Shown here piece after piece: positions 55,804 to 60,794 of a stretch of 64,000 bases of DNA (position 1 is the first letter of the stretch; each line of letters opens with the position of its first letter). The stretch is taken from the NCBI RefSeq assembly GCF_963920885.1, contig NZ_CAWUDG010000023.1:1-64000 (forward strand). Direction: 5' to 3'. The notes under the pieces are model-generated. The model made no database searches. It saw nothing but the letters and a program-made list of their open reading frames with translations, and had not been told where the DNA came from. The DNA comes from Anabaena sp. CCY 0017 (GTDB lineage: Bacteria > Cyanobacteriota > Cyanobacteriia > Cyanobacteriales > Nostocaceae). The position numbers were made by a program, and so were the translations under genes.

Positions 55804-56262
55804 TTAATGGGGTTTTTGGTTTTTTAACTTTTGTTTTTTACGTCGCCGTTCAGCAGCATATACAGCCTGTTCAACTGGATAGCCTGCAATAGGTATAGCC
55901 TGATATTTACGTTCTTCTTCTAACTTTTTCAGTTCGGTGTAATCAACCCAATGGATGCAATCGACTGGACAAGTATCAATTGCTTCTTGGATGATATCCT
56001 CCCCGTCACCATCTTGGCGAATCACACGCGATCGCCCATAATCTGGTTCAATGTAGAAGGTGTTACGTGCCACATGAGCGCAGTGTAAGCAGCCAATACA
56101 GGTGATTTCGTCAACGTAAACACCCTTCTGACGCTCAATACCACCCAATTCCGGCTCTAAACCAGAGCGTTCTGGGTCATCTCGTAAGAAGCCACCTAAC
56201 TCTGGTTCCAAACCGTTCTGGTTGTCTTCTGGTTCTGACTGCGAGGGCAAAAAATCAGCCAT
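55804..56262 (-). CDS. 4Fe-4S ferredoxin-domain protein with N-terminal LEPELGG repeats
   Basis: CIGCLHCAHVA ... CPVDCIHW forms a two-cluster-type Cys motif pair. 152 aa. Confidence 0.7.
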   Translation of the reverse strand: MADFLPSQSEPEDNQNGLEPELGGFLRDDPERSGLEPELGGIERQKGVYVDEITCIGCLHCAHVARNTFYIEPDYGRSRVIRQDGDGEDIIQEAIDTCPVDCIHWVDYTELKKLEEERKYQAIPIAGYPVEQAVYAAERRRKKQKLKNQKPH

Positions 56263-56648
56263 TACGCACTCCAGCGTTGTACTACTAAGCGAATTGAGCC
56301 ATCTTGATTTTTTTCTTGTTCAGTCACTTGAAAGCCTGCGCGAGCAGTTTCTTTCACAACGGACTGATAAGCATAGCGTTGAGTTACTTGGCGTAAGAAG
56401 CCATCGACAGACAAGCCTTGTTGCCAATATTGCAAGTCAGCCACCAACTCATATTCTTTGCCATTCCATCTAAAACCGATGTCATAGCCGTTTTCCTGCT
56501 CAATCGTGACTTCCGCAGGATGAGTTTGACCGCGATAGCCACGGACTTCGCGTGGGCCTGGTCTCCAGTCTATGCCCAATTCTGTTAGAGCATCTTTCAA
56601 AGAATCAAGGTTACGGATTTGAGTTTTAATTTGGCTAAAGTGTGACAT
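56262..56648 (-). CDS. DUF1257 (Ycf35-like) protein
   Basis: 128 aa starting MSHFSQIKTQIRNLDSLKDALTELG, which resembles the conserved Ycf35 N-terminus. The assignment rests on recollection only. Confidence 0.5.
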   Translation of the reverse strand: MSHFSQIKTQIRNLDSLKDALTELGIDWRPGPREVRGYRGQTHPAEVTIEQENGYDIGFRWNGKEYELVADLQYWQQGLSVDGFLRQVTQRYAYQSVVKETARAGFQVTEQEKNQDGSIRLVVQRWSA

Positions 56649-56687
56649 GGCAGTTGTGAATAAATGACACGAAACTTTTAAGAAAAT

Positions 56688-56909
56688 TTACCAATCGCTG
56701 TATGTGGCTTGGGTAGTGGCTACAGCTGATTGTTGCACCTGTGCGGCGAAGAATTCTGAGGTTGGCTGATGACTAAGTACTTGTCCCAGTTGTGCTTCTA
56801 TTGCTGCTGTAACCTCAGCGCAAGAATTGCCCACAATACCAGTGACTGTTTCTTGTACTCGACCGTCTGGATAGATGATGAACTCTAATGTCTCCATGCT
56901 TTTAGCCAA
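56688..56909 (-). CDS. small DUF2997-like protein commonly adjacent to ycf35
   Basis: 73-aa ORF directly upstream of DUF1257 on the same strand. The family assignment is tentative. Confidence 0.4.
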   Translation of the reverse strand: MAKSMETLEFIIYPDGRVQETVTGIVGNSCAEVTAAIEAQLGQVLSHQPTSEFFAAQVQQSAVATTQATYSDW

Positions 56910-57355
56910 CCTTGATAGTACGTTTGAACTTTACTGCCTAAGCAGCAGGCTAAAAATATAGCCATCGGAACATTGTTACTTAGATACAAACTTGCCATTT
57001 GTGAACAAATGTTCCATCTCTCAAAATATATATCTCAGAATCTTTACAAATTTTATTAATATTATAAGCACATACTTCAGTTATTAGTTAGTTTCGCTTA
57101 ACATACTAAATTAGTCAAGCTCACAATTACGCTGCCAAAATCAGCGACAAAAGTCCTCAAAGCAAGCATTAGCAGTAGTTTAGCCAGTTATCCCCTTCAT
57201 AAAAGTATACAATTTATTGAAAAATTTTATCATTACCATTGAATATACACTATTCTTGCCATAGATAGATTCAATCAGGGTTGTTTAACCCACTCGGATT
57301 ATTTCATATATGCGCTACGAGATGCGATCGCCCCACTGATTTTTTTACAAAATAG

Positions 57356-57985
57356 CTAAATAGACTGCAACCACCCTAAAAAATATTTGGTACTGGCGAA
57401 ATATTTTTGTATTCCTGCTGCACCCAATATTTGCTTAATCTCTTTTGTCCCAAAGTCTTTAGAGTTTCCAGTCAACAGAACTTTCTGATCATCTGAAGAG
57501 GTTTTAGCGTGATTAAGAATAGAATGTAAAATTAAGTTATCTGTGGGATCAGGAATAAATTTTTGATTAAGGCTGTCTATAAATATTGATGGTTCTAGAT
57601 TTATTAAATCCACATTATTTGCAGCCCACTTCAAAACTTCAAAAAGGCGATTTTCAATATCATCCGTCATCGCTTCGTTATTAAGTTTGGCAATTTGAAA
57701 AGAACGCAAAATTTCAGCAGAATATTTTGATTTAATATTTCCTTTTAGTTCGTTCCTTTCTTTTTCTAACTTTTCTGTAAAATCATGTCTCCTTCTGCGT
57801 TCATCTGCTAAAACAGAAAGAGACTCCATATAACAAATTGCAGGAGTCAAAATTGTAATATTTGAGATTTCCTCCAACTGTTGAGGATAAATCAAAATTT
57901 CAGCATTTTGATCCTGATTTTTAGCAAAGCTAATAAAAAAATTAGTTTCAATATAAAGTGTAGTCACTAGATTGTATACTCCCAA
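57356..57985 (-). CDS. hypothetical protein with PIN-like acidic-residue pattern (candidate nuclease/toxin)
   Basis: 209 aa. LYIETNFF ... ICYMESLSVLADE ... DPTDNLILHSIL ... LLTGNSKDF resembles the four conserved acidic positions of PIN folds (E replaces the first D). Its start abuts the stop of the upstream ORF (57985/57986). AT-rich codon usage. Confidence 0.4.
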   Translation of the reverse strand: MGVYNLVTTLYIETNFFISFAKNQDQNAEILIYPQQLEEISNITILTPAICYMESLSVLADERRRRHDFTEKLEKERNELKGNIKSKYSAEILRSFQIAKLNNEAMTDDIENRLFEVLKWAANNVDLINLEPSIFIDSLNQKFIPDPTDNLILHSILNHAKTSSDDQKVLLTGNSKDFGTKEIKQILGAAGIQKYFASTKYFLGWLQSI

Positions 57986-58432
57986 TTATGCCGCATCTGC
58001 CAGCTTTTCCACAAAACCTATTTGCTCTAACTCTTGTGATTTAGGAGGATTATCTGTTTTCCAGTTGTACGCTAAATCTCTTAACCAACTCTCAACTAAT
58101 GTTTCTAGATAAAATTCAGAAATTCTCTTGGTTGCAAATTCGGAATCGTATTCAGTCATCACTTCATGAGTCGGGAAGGTGTAGACAGTTGCTAGATTAT
58201 TACCATCCCATTGAAAAATATTAATGTATTCAGGAGTAGCGGTCATCCCATAAGGAAGTATGAGATGATTATGTTCATACTCAAATTTGAGGATTTCTTC
58301 TACTTTTCCTTTAATATCTTCCTCAATATCTCTGGCTCTAATTTTTGATACTAAAAGCTTTTGTCCGTTTTTATCCCAAGCTGTAATATCAGATACTTCT
58401 ATTGTTGGGCTACTTAGTTTTTCAACATCCAT
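57986..58432 (-). CDS. hypothetical protein, upstream partner of the PIN-like ORF
   Basis: 148-aa acidic protein with no recognisable motifs. Translationally coupled to 57356-57985. Confidence 0.4.
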   Translation of the reverse strand: MDVEKLSSPTIEVSDITAWDKNGQKLLVSKIRARDIEEDIKGKVEEILKFEYEHNHLILPYGMTATPEYINIFQWDGNNLATVYTFPTHEVMTEYDSEFATKRISEFYLETLVESWLRDLAYNWKTDNPPKSQELEQIGFVEKLADAA

Positions 58433-58655
58433 TTTTTTAGTCCTCGTGACATTGATTATTGCAACACCTTTATTGTAAAGGATGAGCGAATAAATCAGTC
58501 AGAATAGAAGAGTTAAACCTTGTCCATCATGAAAGGTGGAGTTTTTGTCATTGCGACGTAAGGAAGCAATCTCACCATCTTGACTAAAAACTACAGTTCT
58601 CAAAGTAGACAAGGTTTAGTACAAGAAAATCAAACAAAACTTTTGGAGGCTTGGG

Positions 58656-58937
58656 ATGGGTATTTTGGCAGTTAGGGCGGAAGAAAGAGTTAAGAATGTA
58701 TCCTTTACTGAAGAAAGCATCAGTGTTGATTTAATGGATGGACGCACAATTACAGTACCATTGGTGTGGTATCCCAAGCTGCTTAATGCTACTCCTGAAC
58801 AGCGATTAAAATGGGAAACCTGCGGGGGTGGTTACGGTATTCATTGGGAAGAAATTGACGAAGACCTCAGCACTGAAGGTATGTTACGTGGCGCACCTGC
58901 ACCAAGGGCTGTAAATCAACTACAATCTAATAAATAG
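58656..58937 (+). CDS. DUF2442-family small protein
   Basis: 93 aa. VSFTEESISVDLMDGRTITVPLVWYPKL ... LKWE..GGGYGIHWEEIDEDLS matches the DUF2442 pattern. Confidence 0.55.
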   Translation: MGILAVRAEERVKNVSFTEESISVDLMDGRTITVPLVWYPKLLNATPEQRLKWETCGGGYGIHWEEIDEDLSTEGMLRGAPAPRAVNQLQSNK

Positions 58938-59236
58938 TGTTCAAGTGGATCGTAACTATGAGCGTCGTTATTCCTAATGAAATATTAACCACAACTCGCA
59001 TGAATGAAGAGGAAATGAAGCGAGAAATTGCGGTGATGCTCTTTCAGAAAGACAAGTTAACTCTTGCACAAGCAAGTCGATTTGCTGGTATGAATCGTAT
59101 AGCTTTTCAGCATTTACTCGCAAGTCGTGAAATCCCAGTGCATTATGGGGTTGAGGATTTTGAACAAGATATCAAGAATTTGCGCGAAATGGGTAGACTG
59201 TTATCATTATTAGCGATACTTCACTTATCAAAATAA
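58937..59236 (+). CDS. UPF0175-family small protein (antitoxin-like)
   Basis: 99 aa. Its start overlaps the DUF2442 stop (ATAGTG / ATG context). The helical ribbon-helix-helix-like sequence is typical of UPF0175. Confidence 0.5.
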   Translation: MFKWIVTMSVVIPNEILTTTRMNEEEMKREIAVMLFQKDKLTLAQASRFAGMNRIAFQHLLASREIPVHYGVEDFEQDIKNLREMGRLLSLLAILHLSK

Positions 59237-59297
59237 TTTATATTCATGATAATAACGCGGGGTGCATCCCAGTTTTTATTTCGCAACAACATAATAA

Positions 59298-59397
59298 TTG
59301 TCATTGCGAGGAGGAACGACGAAGCAATCGCAACATCTCCGACTAACAACAAACCTATGCGATTGCTTCATTCCACTTCGTTCCATTCGCAATGACA
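59298..59397. repeat. palindromic dispersed repeat (TTGTCATTGCGA ... TCGCAATGACA family)
   Basis: Terminal inverted repeats plus internal GAAGCAATCGCAA / ATGCGATTGCTTCA inverted cores. Same family as 7743-7960. It abuts the truncated xisH remnant. Confidence 0.55.
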
Positions 59398-59420
59398 TAC
59401 ATTGAAATTTTTACGCCGAC

Positions 59421-59567
59421 TTAACTGAATAATCTTTTTGCACCTAAACCAACAAATAGATTTTTACCTCTCGCTAAACGAATTCGTAAAGGGTCATAGA
59501 CAATTTTCCAGCCATCTTTGACGAGTGCATTTTTTACGGTGCTGTGATAGATGTCTCTAGCTGGCAT
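59421..59567 (-). pseudogene. truncated xisH-like gene remnant (fdxN-element excision controlling factor family)
   Basis: A 48-aa minus-strand ORF MPARDIYHSTVKNALVKDGWKIVYDPLRIRLARGKNLFVGLGAKRLFS* matches the conserved XisH N-terminus (MPAKDI(F/Y)H..VKNAL.KDGW.I..DP). It stops after about 1/3 of the usual about-138-aa length, and no xisI follows. Confidence 0.5.
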
Positions 59568-59789
59568 AATTAAAAATCAGATTTTCAAATCTGAGCAACC
59601 TACTCATATTTTGTATTTTCTGTCAAGTCGTAAGTCCCATAACAATTGTAATCTAAACATCACCTTCTTTATAGCCAAGCTCAAATCTGCAAAATATTCT
59701 GGTAAAAAAATTATTAGTCAGCTAACGAAGCAAGGATAATGGAGCATAATTAACCTTTATAGCTGTTAACACAACGCCACAAATTTACT

Positions 59790-60794
59790 ATGAATACACA
59801 ACCAACAAACCAACCTATCCGCGTCGGAGTCCTGGGTTTCGGTGGACTGGGACAAGCCGCCGCTAAACTCCTCTCCAGCAAACGGGAAATGATCTTAGTC
59901 GCAGCCGCAGACCAAAAAGGCTACGCTTACTCTAGCGAAGGTTTAAATACTCAAGAATGCATTAAAACCTACCAAAGTCAAGGTTCTGTCGGTTATTTAG
60001 AACCAGTTGGCAGATTAAGCAATAACAGCATTCAAGATTTAATCGCTACCACTCAGCCTGTAGATGGGTATTTCCTCGCTTTACCCAACCTCCCGAATGA
60101 CTTTATTCCCTCCGTCGCCCAAGAATTTATCAAATCGGGTTGGCGGGGTGTGCTAGTAGATGCGATTAAACGCACCAGTGCAGTAGAACAACTTTTGGCG
60201 ATGAAAAACGAACTGCAAGCCGCCGGAATTACCTATATGTCTGGATGTGGTGCGACACCAGGACTATTAACCGCCGCCGCCGCTTTAGCCGCCCAAAGCT
60301 ACGCCGAAATTCATAAAGTAGAAATTACCTTTGGTGTCGGTATTGCCAATTGGGAAGCTTACCGCGCCACAGTTCGGGAAGACATTGGACATATGCCTGG
60401 TTATAGTGTAGAAACTGCGAGGGCGATGACTGATGCTGAAGTTGAAGCCTTATTAGATAAAACCAATGGCGTGCTGACTTTAGAGAATATGGAACACGCT
60501 GATGATGTGATGTTAGAATTTGCGGGAATTTGTTCACGCGATCGCGTTACAGTTGGTGGAGTCGTCGATACTCGCAATGCCAAAAAACCCCTCAGCACCA
60601 ATGTTAAAGTCACCGGACGCACCTTTGAAGGTAAAATTTCCACCCATACCTTTACATTAGGAGATGAAACCAGTATGGCAGCCAATGTTTGCGGTCCTGC
60701 CTTTGGCTATCTCAAAGCTGGTAGACAATTACACCAACGCGGTATTTATGGCATTTTCACTGCTGCGGAAATTATGCCCCAATTTGTGAAATAA
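59790..60794 (+). CDS. NAD(P)-binding Rossmann-fold oxidoreductase (saccharopine/homoserine dehydrogenase-like)
   Basis: N-terminal [19 protein letters not shown] dinucleotide-binding motif. 334 aa. Confidence 0.45.

Follow-up and report, generated by a model that had tools for sequence, protein, structure and literature searches.

A pair of intact, adjacent genes on the minus strand of Anabaena sp. CCY 0017 contig NZ_CAWUDG010000023.1 (positions 57356-58432 of the 64,000-nucleotide stretch analyzed, referred to here as the window) was found to encode a PIN_12 nuclease-domain protein and an upstream partner with a predicted PD-(D/E)xK fold, each of which is almost always accompanied by the other in the filamentous cyanobacteria where relatives occur. 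The original prediction had seen in this locus the hallmarks of a toxin-antitoxin or abortive-infection module. Judging from sequence comparisons, our preferred reading is a toxin-antitoxin or abortive-infection module that is VapBC-like but non-canonical; we put its probability at roughly 0.45, somewhat short of an even chance. The relevant features are as follows.

57986..58432, minus strand: upstream partner gene ("UP"), 148 aa, ATG start, TAA stop at 57986-57988 (open reading frame and homologs)
57356..57967, minus strand: PIN_12 (PF16289) nuclease gene, 203 aa from a GTG at 57965-57967
57979..57983, minus strand: Shine-Dalgarno-like GGGAG, 11 nt upstream of the PIN GTG, within the 18-nt intergenic spacer (sequence reading)
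58433..58500, minus strand: 5' region of the module, kept wherever the clade of the window copy occurs (alignment of ten clade-A upstream regions)

Both open reading frames were present as originally described, namely, 57986..58432 (148 aa, ATG) and 57356..57985 (209 aa from a TTG), both on the minus strand. The stop and start codons were said to abut, which is correct for the reading frames themselves (TAA at 57986-57988, TTG at 57983-57985) but not for the likely start of the PIN gene. All 47 of the 47 aligned homologs begin with M-x-x-L-Y-I-E-T-N and are ~203 aa long, indicating that translation probably starts at the GTG; this codon is located 18 nt past the upstream stop and, hence, the genes are closely spaced rather than abutting. 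The 5' region of the pair contains a -10-like TACAAT (58472-58477), for which relatives have TATAAT, and a GAGGA (58441-58445) situated 8 nt before the ATG of the partner gene. Homology to copies in other contexts begins at ~58455-58517, as judged from blastn boundaries. From these sequence features we infer a putative promoter role for 58433..58500, such that a promoter-like region and two genes would form a compact module of ~1.15 kb (roughly 57351-58500). A generic promoter and terminator scan yielded no more matches than in shuffled controls, and no Rfam matches were detected across 56500-60000.

The downstream protein is a full-length PIN_12 domain of the VapC structural group. A PIN/NYN-like nuclease fold had been guessed from the sequence and proved right as regards PIN, with a Pfam match to PIN_12 (PF16289, formerly DUF4935) of 57.5 bits against a cut-off of 32 that covered profile positions 1-172 of 172 and an AlphaFold model with a pLDDT of 94. 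The same profile was matched by all 48 aligned homologs. Invariant residues in the homolog alignment, counted from the GTG start, were E7, T8, N9, E48, D140, T142, D143, and N168. The four acidic motifs originally picked out do contain family-invariant columns, i.e., E7 in YIETNFF, E48 in MESL, D140 and D143 in PTDNLIL, and N168 in the fourth; the acidic residue of this last motif (D171 of GNSKDF), however, is not invariant, being D or E in most homologs. The second strand of the PIN fold is followed by a long insert, residues 44-118, in the form of a helical hairpin. The protein has a pI of 5.3, and its residue pattern is consistent with a metal-dependent endoribonuclease that would cut RNA.

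The 148-aa partner is acidic, as had been stated (pI 4.57, net charge of about -13), and its AlphaFold model (pLDDT of 91.4) is that of a well-folded globular protein. No Pfam match was obtained for the window partner at E <= 1, HSDR_N_2 (PF13588) included. Its family, which comprises about 360 clusters, was more informative: 35 of 69 homologs matched HSDR_N_2 (best E of 8.8e-7), and the window protein was homologous to these members in profile searches (E of 1e-30 to 1e-42). A precomputed PF13588 assignment was present on many of the members found at a chromosomal site beside ispF (described below), relatives carry the NCBI name [quoted passage not shown] and fold searches with the model returned restriction-endonuclease-like proteins. 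The partner, thus modeled, looks like an HsdR-N-like PD-(D/E)xK nuclease fold. When the partner profile was run against PDB sequences, the only match was ribosomal protein L7Ae at E of 0.55, which was dismissed as due to chance.

The catalytic motif of this fold varies within the family. In a MAFFT alignment of 138 family representatives, D occupied position 15 in 89%, an acidic residue (E or D) was present at position 30 in 74%, and position 32 held a basic residue (K or R) in 76%. In the clade to which the window copy belongs, all 39 members have D15, K30, R32, and T66 where the family consensus has D, E, K, and D. Replacement of D..ExK by D..KxR suggests that the active site of the partner in this clade is dead, a prediction based on sequence; despite the altered motif, these proteins are still 55-91% identical. 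The C-terminal helix was nearly invariant in the 138 diverse representatives (Y95, Y108, W116, D119, W124, K125, P129, and P130), and the conserved function of the partner is, on the reading of these alignments, not catalysis. An intact D..ExK was observed in 43 of 51 partners from the ispF site, suggesting a catalytic role of their own for these proteins.

A search for co-occurrence in other genomes, as proposed in the original prediction, found the pair adjacent in two independently ascertained sets of loci. Of the 82 loci found via the partner, 80 have a PIN_12 homolog as the next gene downstream in the same orientation; of the 77 found via the PIN gene, 76 have the partner as the next gene upstream. 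Across the family, the distance between the partner stop and the PIN start varied between -68 and +79 nt and was in most cases between -56 and +18, and the PIN start codon was GTG in 90 of 131 pairs. This partner-first order and tight spacing are typical of type II toxin-antitoxin operons. Longer family members (P0196, P0273, P0284, and others) had no extra Pfam domain. No fusion of partner and PIN was present among the family members listed (up to 150 partner clusters, the longest of 251 aa, and 120 PIN proteins, the longest of 221 aa), apart from P0289, which was rejected as a functional fusion, being a truncated chimera.

Loss was unequally distributed between the two genes. Among 81 loci ascertained through the partner, 16 had a PIN gene that was missing, shortened, or frameshifted, while a disrupted partner was observed beside an intact PIN gene in 1 of 68 loci (Fisher p = 4e-4 for the asymmetry). 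Some of the frameshifts came from metagenome-assembled or draft genomes and may be assembly errors; unambiguous deletions were detected in four isolate genomes (L012, L029, L042, and L067) and one metagenome-assembled genome (L065). Orphan partners retain the conserved residues, and partners with an intact D..ExK survive at loci from which the PIN gene has been deleted. A model with these roles exchanged, in which the partner is toxic and the PIN protein neutralizes it, was rejected due to this persistence of intact-D..ExK partners without a PIN gene, and is also opposed by the pairing, in the clade of the window copy, of a predicted dead partner site with an intact PIN site.

The family was detected in the genomes of at least 158 species of 185,579 scanned, a lower bound since the scan demanded one short peptide pattern; this pattern was built on a narrower partner alignment (A3), as the broad one (A2) had no sufficiently conserved stretch. 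In about 58 of 82 loci, a paralogous pair occupies a fixed site, trmD-ispF-pair-SBP-purE, across cyanobacterial orders (Nostocales, Microcoleus, Tychonema, Chroococcidiopsidales, Stigonema, and Scytonema). The tree of this ispF-site family follows taxonomy which, together with the fixed position, looks like long vertical inheritance. The clade of the window copy, by comparison, is found between various sets of flanking genes, and one of its members lies on a conjugative plasmid (AP018315). One genome holds a pair of this clade together with a paralogous ispF-site pair, and tandem double pairs were observed at two loci (L044 and L052). The locus of the window copy is the same in Nodularia and several Nostoc genomes. 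The region differs even from that of a 95%-identical relative (L003). The PIN gene was found on 1 of 72,556 plasmids, and no relatives of the pair were detected on viral contigs.

The AT-rich composition noted originally was borne out. GC contents were 0.35 for the partner gene and 0.315 for the PIN gene in a window of 0.405, and the respective GC3 values of 0.26 and 0.245 (~0.25) compare with 0.32-0.39 across nine neighboring genes. Pairs at the ispF site are also AT-rich relative to their neighbors, indicating that this is a trait of the family and no sign of recent acquisition. The elements reported beside the pair were likewise located: DUF2442 (58656-58937) and UPF0175 (58937-59236) genes, a MITE-like nested inverted repeat (59299-59397), and an N-terminal fragment of XisH (59421-59567; profile positions 1-46 of 134). 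On either flank, there are core genes of an ordinary kind (ferredoxin, ycf35/DUF1257, DUF2997, and a pilC-like gene) rather than a defense island. The pair had been called uncharacterized, and so it appeared in our searches: neither protein matched any PADLOC-DB 2.0 defense model at E <= 1, neither had a meaningful NCBIfam or PHROG match, and a literature search found no description of the pair. No counter-defense signal was found in the PHROG search or on viral contigs. The original prediction had set against itself a pair of conserved core genes of known function without a nuclease fold; this is not what was found.

A toxin-antitoxin mechanism for this pair would run as follows. The two genes would be co-transcribed from their own promoter-like region, with the PIN_12 protein as the harmful effector, a metal-dependent endoribonuclease. 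The partner, a putative PD-(D/E)xK-fold pseudo-nuclease that has lost its catalytic glutamate, would bind the PIN protein and hold it inactive, probably via its invariant C-terminal helix (W116-L-R-D119 .. W124-K .. P129-P130). Since the partner has an ATG with a good Shine-Dalgarno sequence and the PIN gene a GTG, more partner than nuclease would be made. If stress, phage infection, or disappearance of the module then removed or titrated the partner, the nuclease would be set free, leading to RNA cleavage and growth arrest. The analysis itself shows the two modeled folds, the patterns of catalytic residues, the almost constant pairing with its order and spacing, and the unequal decay affecting the PIN gene; physical binding, inhibition, the RNA substrate, toxicity, and the trigger are what we infer.

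Several observations favor this reading, namely, the pairing, the operon layout, the asymmetric decay of the PIN gene, the non-catalytic conservation of the partner, and the mobility of the window clade. A phage-protective "PIN12" protein, Cosus, was also counted in favor, its likeness being known by description. Against it, the partner lacks a recognizable DNA-binding antitoxin domain or a disordered toxin-binding tail, and both proteins are acidic, so that the usual contrast between an acidic antitoxin and a basic toxin is absent. The location of about 58 of 82 loci at one site with apparent vertical descent is unusual for selfish toxin-antitoxin modules, and the intact D..ExK of most ispF-site partners, the absence of viral-contig relatives and PADLOC matches, and the single plasmid occurrence were also counted against it, as was the possibility that some PIN frameshifts are assembly errors.

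As in VapBC, a small acidic partner is encoded upstream of a PIN nuclease, which has conserved acidic residues and belongs to the VapC structural group, the genes overlap or are close, several copies may occur per genome, and the nuclease gene decays preferentially. VapBC antitoxins have an N-terminal DNA-binding domain of the AbrB, RHH, Phd/YefM, or HTH type and a flexible C-terminus that binds the toxin. The 148-aa partner is instead globular, with a PD-(D/E)xK-like fold, and a Pfam scan of the window partner detected none of these four kinds of domain. The PIN protein is larger and of the PIN_12 type, with a hairpin insert of ~75 residues and E for D in the first motif. As regards distribution, a large part of the family differs from such modules in keeping to a single chromosomal position, with a tree that follows taxonomy, whereas the clade of the window copy has members in various contexts, one of them a plasmid.

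Matelska et al. 2017 (PMC5499597) described for PIN_12/DUF4935 a long insert of helices behind the second strand, in agreement with the window protein, which matches the whole profile above the gathering score and has this insert. The one survey treating the family described its genes as mostly monocistronic (PMC5499597), whereas the cyanobacterial proteins, of ~200 aa, are almost always encoded behind a dedicated partner gene. Relatives of the partner match HSDR_N_2 and share the consensus D..ExK with stand-alone PD-(D/E)xK proteins (Uma2/DUF820) and the HsdR nuclease domain; the window partner differs in having no Pfam match and a D..KxR motif, an invariant C-terminal helix and a PP motif are particular to the partner family, and the pair is not linked to restriction-modification genes. 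Cosus (brc24) protects E. coli from phage T7, for which its predicted catalytic residues are reportedly needed (bioRxiv 10.1101/2024.07.02.601719). It is likened to the window PIN protein through its reported "PIN12" domain, but is a single gene in a gammaproteobacterial integron cassette without a partner gene.

The main rival explanation is a nuclease of two subunits, stable and non-toxic, that would serve in processing RNA or repairing nucleic acids. The PD-(D/E)xK subunit would recognize the substrate or provide a second catalytic activity, the PIN protein would be the other nuclease, and the window copy would be a paralog whose PD-(D/E)xK subunit is now purely structural. The fixed site by trmD and ispF across orders, with a tree that follows taxonomy, would be expected to suit such an enzyme, as would the 43 of 51 intact motifs and the strong conservation and good folding of both proteins. 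The eukaryotic DUF1308 protein (human C7orf25), a PD-(D/E)xK and PIN fusion with some reported cyanobacterial members (PMC5499597), indicates that the combination can act as one unit. The PIN gene, however, is lost or broken in ~20% of loci while the partner persists, suggesting that it is dispensable and that the two subunits are not equally needed. The sparse distribution (at least 158 of 185,579 species' genomes), the possibility of several paralogous copies per genome, the movement of the window clade between contexts, the lack of fusions among listed members other than the truncated chimera, and the persistent AT-richness relative to neighbors all weigh against an enzyme of this kind, and we regard it as less likely than not. 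A dedicated anti-phage system, in which the PD-(D/E)xK-fold protein senses phage nucleic acid or protein and releases or activates the PIN nuclease, is rather unlikely. Such a system would accord with the defense against T7 by the single-gene "PIN12" cassette, with the plausibility of a nuclease fold as a nucleic acid sensor, and with the position of the window copy in a small variable islet (DUF2442 and UPF0175, XisH fragment, and MITE-like repeats) in a region that differs even from the 95%-identical relative. It is opposed by the absence of PADLOC matches, phage-borne relatives, and counter-defense signals in our searches, by the ordinary core genes on the flanks, and by the residence of most family members at a housekeeping locus.

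That the two genes are mere neighbors with unrelated functions, or decaying remnants, is scarcely credible. Neither protein has an experimental annotation and the upstream protein has no family match of its own, but adjacency in 80 of 82 and 76 of 77 loci across many flanking contexts effectively refutes chance neighborhood, and both window genes are full length and retain every clade-invariant residue in the homolog alignments, which argues against decay. A broader proposal is decidedly improbable: an ancient cyanobacterial PD-(D/E)xK and PIN_12 module inherited vertically beside ispF for most of filamentous-cyanobacterial history, with the partner defining a novel type of PIN regulator (a "pseudo-nuclease antitoxin" in which catalytic activity has been lost more than once). 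The module might also be a split prokaryotic counterpart of the eukaryotic C7orf25/DUF1308 fusion. The two nuclease folds and their order are the same in DUF1308 as in the pair. DUF1308 (PF07000) was absent among the listed matches (E <= 1) of the window proteins and among the families matched most often by 69 homologs of the partner and 48 of the PIN protein; the Pfam matches of both families give no sequence support to a split DUF1308 protein, and the likeness, drawn by analogy, is one of architecture only.

PIN_12/DUF4935 is a large nuclease family, and its cyanobacterial branch now has a strictly linked partner with a predicted nuclease fold. The pairing provides a concrete model of a PIN effector with a pseudo-nuclease neutralizer which, if true, would add an antitoxin or regulator of a structural type not seen before. 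With a paralog fixed at the ispF site across cyanobacterial orders and a roaming clade with a predicted dead site, the family offers a natural experiment that could reveal how a toxin-antitoxin-like module develops from a two-nuclease system, or the reverse. The clade of the window copy includes the bloom-forming Nodularia, Aphanizomenon, and Dolichospermum, hosts in which phage defense and stress dormancy would be ecologically relevant.

The two genes lie on the minus strand, with the following extents at the level of open reading frames (ORFs):

57986..58432, minus strand, ORF of the partner (the upstream gene), 148 aa, ATG start
57356..57985, minus strand, mechanical extent of the PIN ORF, 209 aa counted from TTG

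The original prediction had the two genes directly abutting. This holds at the ORF level only, where the partner stop codon TAA, read from the sequence at 57986 to 57988, immediately adjoins the TTG. As near and distant PIN homologs have ~203 aa and all begin with M-x-x-L-Y-I-E-T-N, the likely PIN start, judged from these homologs, is the GTG at 57965 to 57967, located 18 nt past the partner stop and preceded by a GGGAG element 11 nt upstream. The pair was AT-rich, as had been claimed, with a GC content of 0.35 for the partner and 0.315 for the PIN gene and GC3 values of 0.26 and 0.245, compared with 0.32 to 0.39 in nine neighboring genes. The 148-aa protein was acidic, as described, and strongly so (pI 4.57); the acidity of the PIN protein was mild (pI 5.3). 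The closest matches were from Nodularia and Nostoc (at most 95% identity for DNA and 91% for the partner protein), indicating that the window belongs to a Nodularia-like member of the Nostocaceae.

The larger protein had been proposed to have a PIN-like nuclease fold. It matched the entire Pfam PIN_12 profile (PF16289, formerly DUF4935) with a score of 57.5 bits (cut-off, 32 bits), and in an AlphaFold model generated from a 48-homolog alignment (mean pLDDT of 94) strands 2 and 3 of the PIN core were separated by an inserted helical hairpin of ~75 residues. The fold was thereby confirmed, and the protein is a member of PIN_12. Columns Y5, E7, T8, N9, A15, P42, E48, F63, D140, T142, D143, L145, I146, L147, N168, F172 and L181 were invariant in the 48 homologs. 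Four spaced acidic positions had been predicted; three of the quoted motifs contain an invariant acidic residue, while in the fourth the invariant residue is N168, close to D171, a position at which most of the homologs have D or E. The sole substantive paper found on DUF4935/PIN_12 (Matelska et al. 2017, PMC5499597) assigned it to the VapC group, with function unknown and usually monocistronic genes.

The partner alignment was used to scan a single genome for each species, which gave 158 relatives; the best 80 loci were examined together with two found earlier. In 80 of these 82 loci, an HMM built from the PIN homologs detected a co-directional PIN_12 gene directly downstream of the partner. 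Conversely, when metagenomes were scanned with the PIN alignment, 76 of the 77 loci with room for the partner had it directly upstream. The partner and the PIN gene are a unit. The distance from partner stop to PIN start in 131 pairs from loci L001 to L162 lay between −68 and +79 nt (for most pairs, between −56 and +18), and the inferred PIN start codons were GTG (90), ATG (25) and TTG (16). The C-terminal tail of the partner overlapped the PIN start by 17 to 56 nt in many of the paralogous pairs located beside ispF. Named hosts were mostly filamentous cyanobacteria, plus a few Planctomycetes. Intact pairs were observed in Tepidisphaeraceae and Planctomycetaceae contigs (L038 and L075) and in a metagenome-assembled genome labeled Alcaligenaceae (L035); the unrelated flanking genes of these pairs indicated occasional transfer out of cyanobacteria. 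A PIN homolog was also present in an Isosphaeraceae bacterium of the Planctomycetes (P0157). A metagenomic protein of 250 aa, P0289, was a chimera of the C-terminal half of the partner and the C-terminal two thirds of PIN_12; it had no ETN catalytic motif and is probably a deletion product rather than a functional fusion.

The partner had no match of its own in Pfam, NCBIfam, PADLOC or PHROG. A word-indexed search detected only 46 homologs, with every named source being from the Nostocaceae. Searching 1.84 billion cluster representatives with a profile yielded 362 clusters (E ≤ 1e-3), the majority of which were ~150 aa long. The consensus D-I-x-A-x-D-x5-V-L-x-V-E-V-K of the family alignment corresponds in sequence to the D..ExK hairpin of PD-(D/E)xK nucleases. 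HSDR_N_2 (PF13588) was weakly matched by 35 of 69 family members (best E value, 8.8e-7), a few matched PDDEXK_3, NucS_C, Hjc or Uma2, and more typical members are named 'type I restriction enzyme HsdR N-terminal domain-containing protein' by NCBI. The partner is predicted to be a degenerate PD-(D/E)xK nuclease-fold protein. Conservation of the putative active site in 138 diverse family representatives was as follows:

position 15, D in 89%
position 30, E or D in 74%
position 32, K or R in 76%
position 66, D in 72%

All 39 partners of the window's clade had D15, K30, R32 and T66. The alignment was gapless from D15 to position 32, so an alignment error does not account for the missing catalytic glutamate. 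The C-terminal stretch Y-L-x-x-L-V-E-A-W-L-R-D-L-A-Y-H-W-K-S-x-x-P-P was highly conserved, with Y95, Y108, L112, W116, D119, W124, K125, P129 and P130 being invariant or nearly so throughout the family.

Approximately 58 of the 82 loci had the order cphB< trmD> ispF> partner> PIN> SBP_bac_5> purE> (e.g., L020:4001-5117; also L002, L021, L034, L051 and L076), found in Nostocales, Microcoleus, Tychonema, Floridaenema, Chroococcidiopsidales, Stigonema and Scytonema. These ispF-site pairs clustered broadly by taxon in a neighbor-joining tree, and 43 of 51 partners had an intact D..ExK motif. In 45 of 45 loci the ispF-site pairs were more AT-rich than their neighbors (0.365 and 0.343 versus 0.42 to 0.49); low GC is, therefore, a family trait and not evidence of recent arrival of the window copy. 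The window's clade (55 to 95% identity) was separate and never at the ispF site among the loci examined. The window context (334-aa gene, UPF0175, pair, DUF2997, ycf35/DUF1257, ferredoxin) recurred wholly or partly in the Nodularia-like and Nostoc loci L003 to L006 and L008; the remaining members had differing flanks, with one copy on a conjugative Sphaerospermopsis plasmid. Homology between contexts started ~25 to 70 nt upstream of the ATG and ended ~5 nt past the PIN stop, and the conserved upstream stretch contained a −10-like TATAAT, which reads TACAAT in the window, and a Shine-Dalgarno element that is GAGGA there, indicative of a self-contained cassette of ~1.15 kb. Both kinds of pair were present in Anabaena sp. 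4-3, Nostoc P10160 and Nostoc NMS7. Rhizonema and Iningainema (L044:2814-5065 and L052:3312-5829) each had two divergent pairs in tandem at the ispF site, which suggests that the pair was duplicated long ago and the copies were then differentially lost.

The DUF2442 and UPF0175 genes, the MITE and the truncated xisH that had been reported beside the pair were all found; these and further features of the surrounding sequence were as follows:

58656-59236, plus strand, DUF2442 and UPF0175 genes, one-base overlap at the ORF level
59299-59397, MITE-like hairpin of nested perfect inverted repeats, TGTCATTGCGA..TCGCAATGACA and GAAGCAATCGCA..TGCGATTGCTTC
59421-59567, minus strand, xisH remnant, 48-aa ORF
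58546-58557, 12-mer GTCGCAATGACA, akin to the hairpin repeats
58514-58618, 33-nt imperfect inverted repeat
55804-56909, minus strand, DUF2997, DUF1257 (ycf35-like) and 4Fe-4S ferredoxin genes, tight co-directional cluster

The DUF2442 and UPF0175 genes are a second small toxin-antitoxin-like pair; L003, a relative with 95% identity, lacks the stretch from 58518 to 58911, in which most of the DUF2442 gene lies. The xisH ORF matched only positions 1 to 46 of the 134 in the XisH profile and is thus truncated. The 12-mer (three copies in the window versus 0.24 expected) and the imperfect repeat are located immediately outside the conserved boundary of the module, on its upstream side. The DUF1257 and ferredoxin genes share a start/stop junction at 56262, and their cluster was kept beside the pair in L003 to L005 and partly in L008.

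Loss of the two genes was one-sided. The PIN gene was deleted, truncated or frameshifted beside a full-length partner in 16 of 81 loci ascertained by the partner, while the partner was disrupted beside an intact PIN gene in 1 of 68 loci ascertained by PIN (Fisher P = 4e-4). Three-frame translation demonstrated clear deletions in four isolates (Anabaena 4-3, Calothrix brevissima NIES-22, Tolypothrix FACHB-123 and Floridaenema aerugineum) and in L065, an uncultured Coleofasciculus metagenome-assembled genome; the remaining damaged genes had stops or frameshifts. Orphan partners kept D..ExK in 8 of 11 ispF-site cases and also kept the C-terminal invariants. Of the two genes, it is PIN that is dispensable or costly, and this one-sided loss, together with the motifs kept by orphan partners, rules out the partner as a toxin dependent on the PIN protein.

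The most economical model, to which we assign a probability of roughly 0.45, is a non-canonical VapBC-like module with the partner as neutralizer. The effector would be the PIN_12 protein, a toxic endoribonuclease, and the PD-(D/E)xK-fold partner, produced in excess through a stronger start site, would bind and neutralize it until some trigger frees the effector. Consistent with a toxin held in check by its neighbor are the predicted dead catalytic site in the window's clade together with strong conservation, the invariant non-catalytic helix of the partner, the near-obligate adjacency, the one-sided PIN gene decay and the roaming of a cassette with its own promoter-like region. The pair is not, however, a member of canonical VapBC, its partner lacking the features of the antitoxin expected there. 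Against a textbook toxin-antitoxin system stand the lack of an antitoxin-type DNA-binding domain in the partner, the acidity of both proteins, the very long stability of the ispF-site paralog and the D..ExK motif kept by most ispF-site partners (43/51). This last feature hints at an ancestral system of two active nucleases. A non-toxic heteromeric nuclease is a less likely but serious alternative.

A dedicated phage sensor-effector, which overlaps with the neutralizer model, is less probable again. A possible lead toward defense is 'Cosus', a single-gene integron cassette described as carrying a 'PIN12' domain and reported to block phage T7 (preprint, bioRxiv 10.1101/2024.07.02.601719). DUF1308/C7orf25 has only the PD-(D/E)xK plus PIN architecture in common with the pair, and relatedness is not demonstrable. 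The pair matched none of the PADLOC systems, and a literature search found no publication on the partner family or its PIN_12 linkage, in agreement with the earlier view of an uncharacterized module. The neutralizer model is clearly defined and can be tested, and the pair shows an unusual evolutionary pattern. Rather than a categorically new system, the pair is best regarded as a PIN nuclease module whose partner is of a new class.
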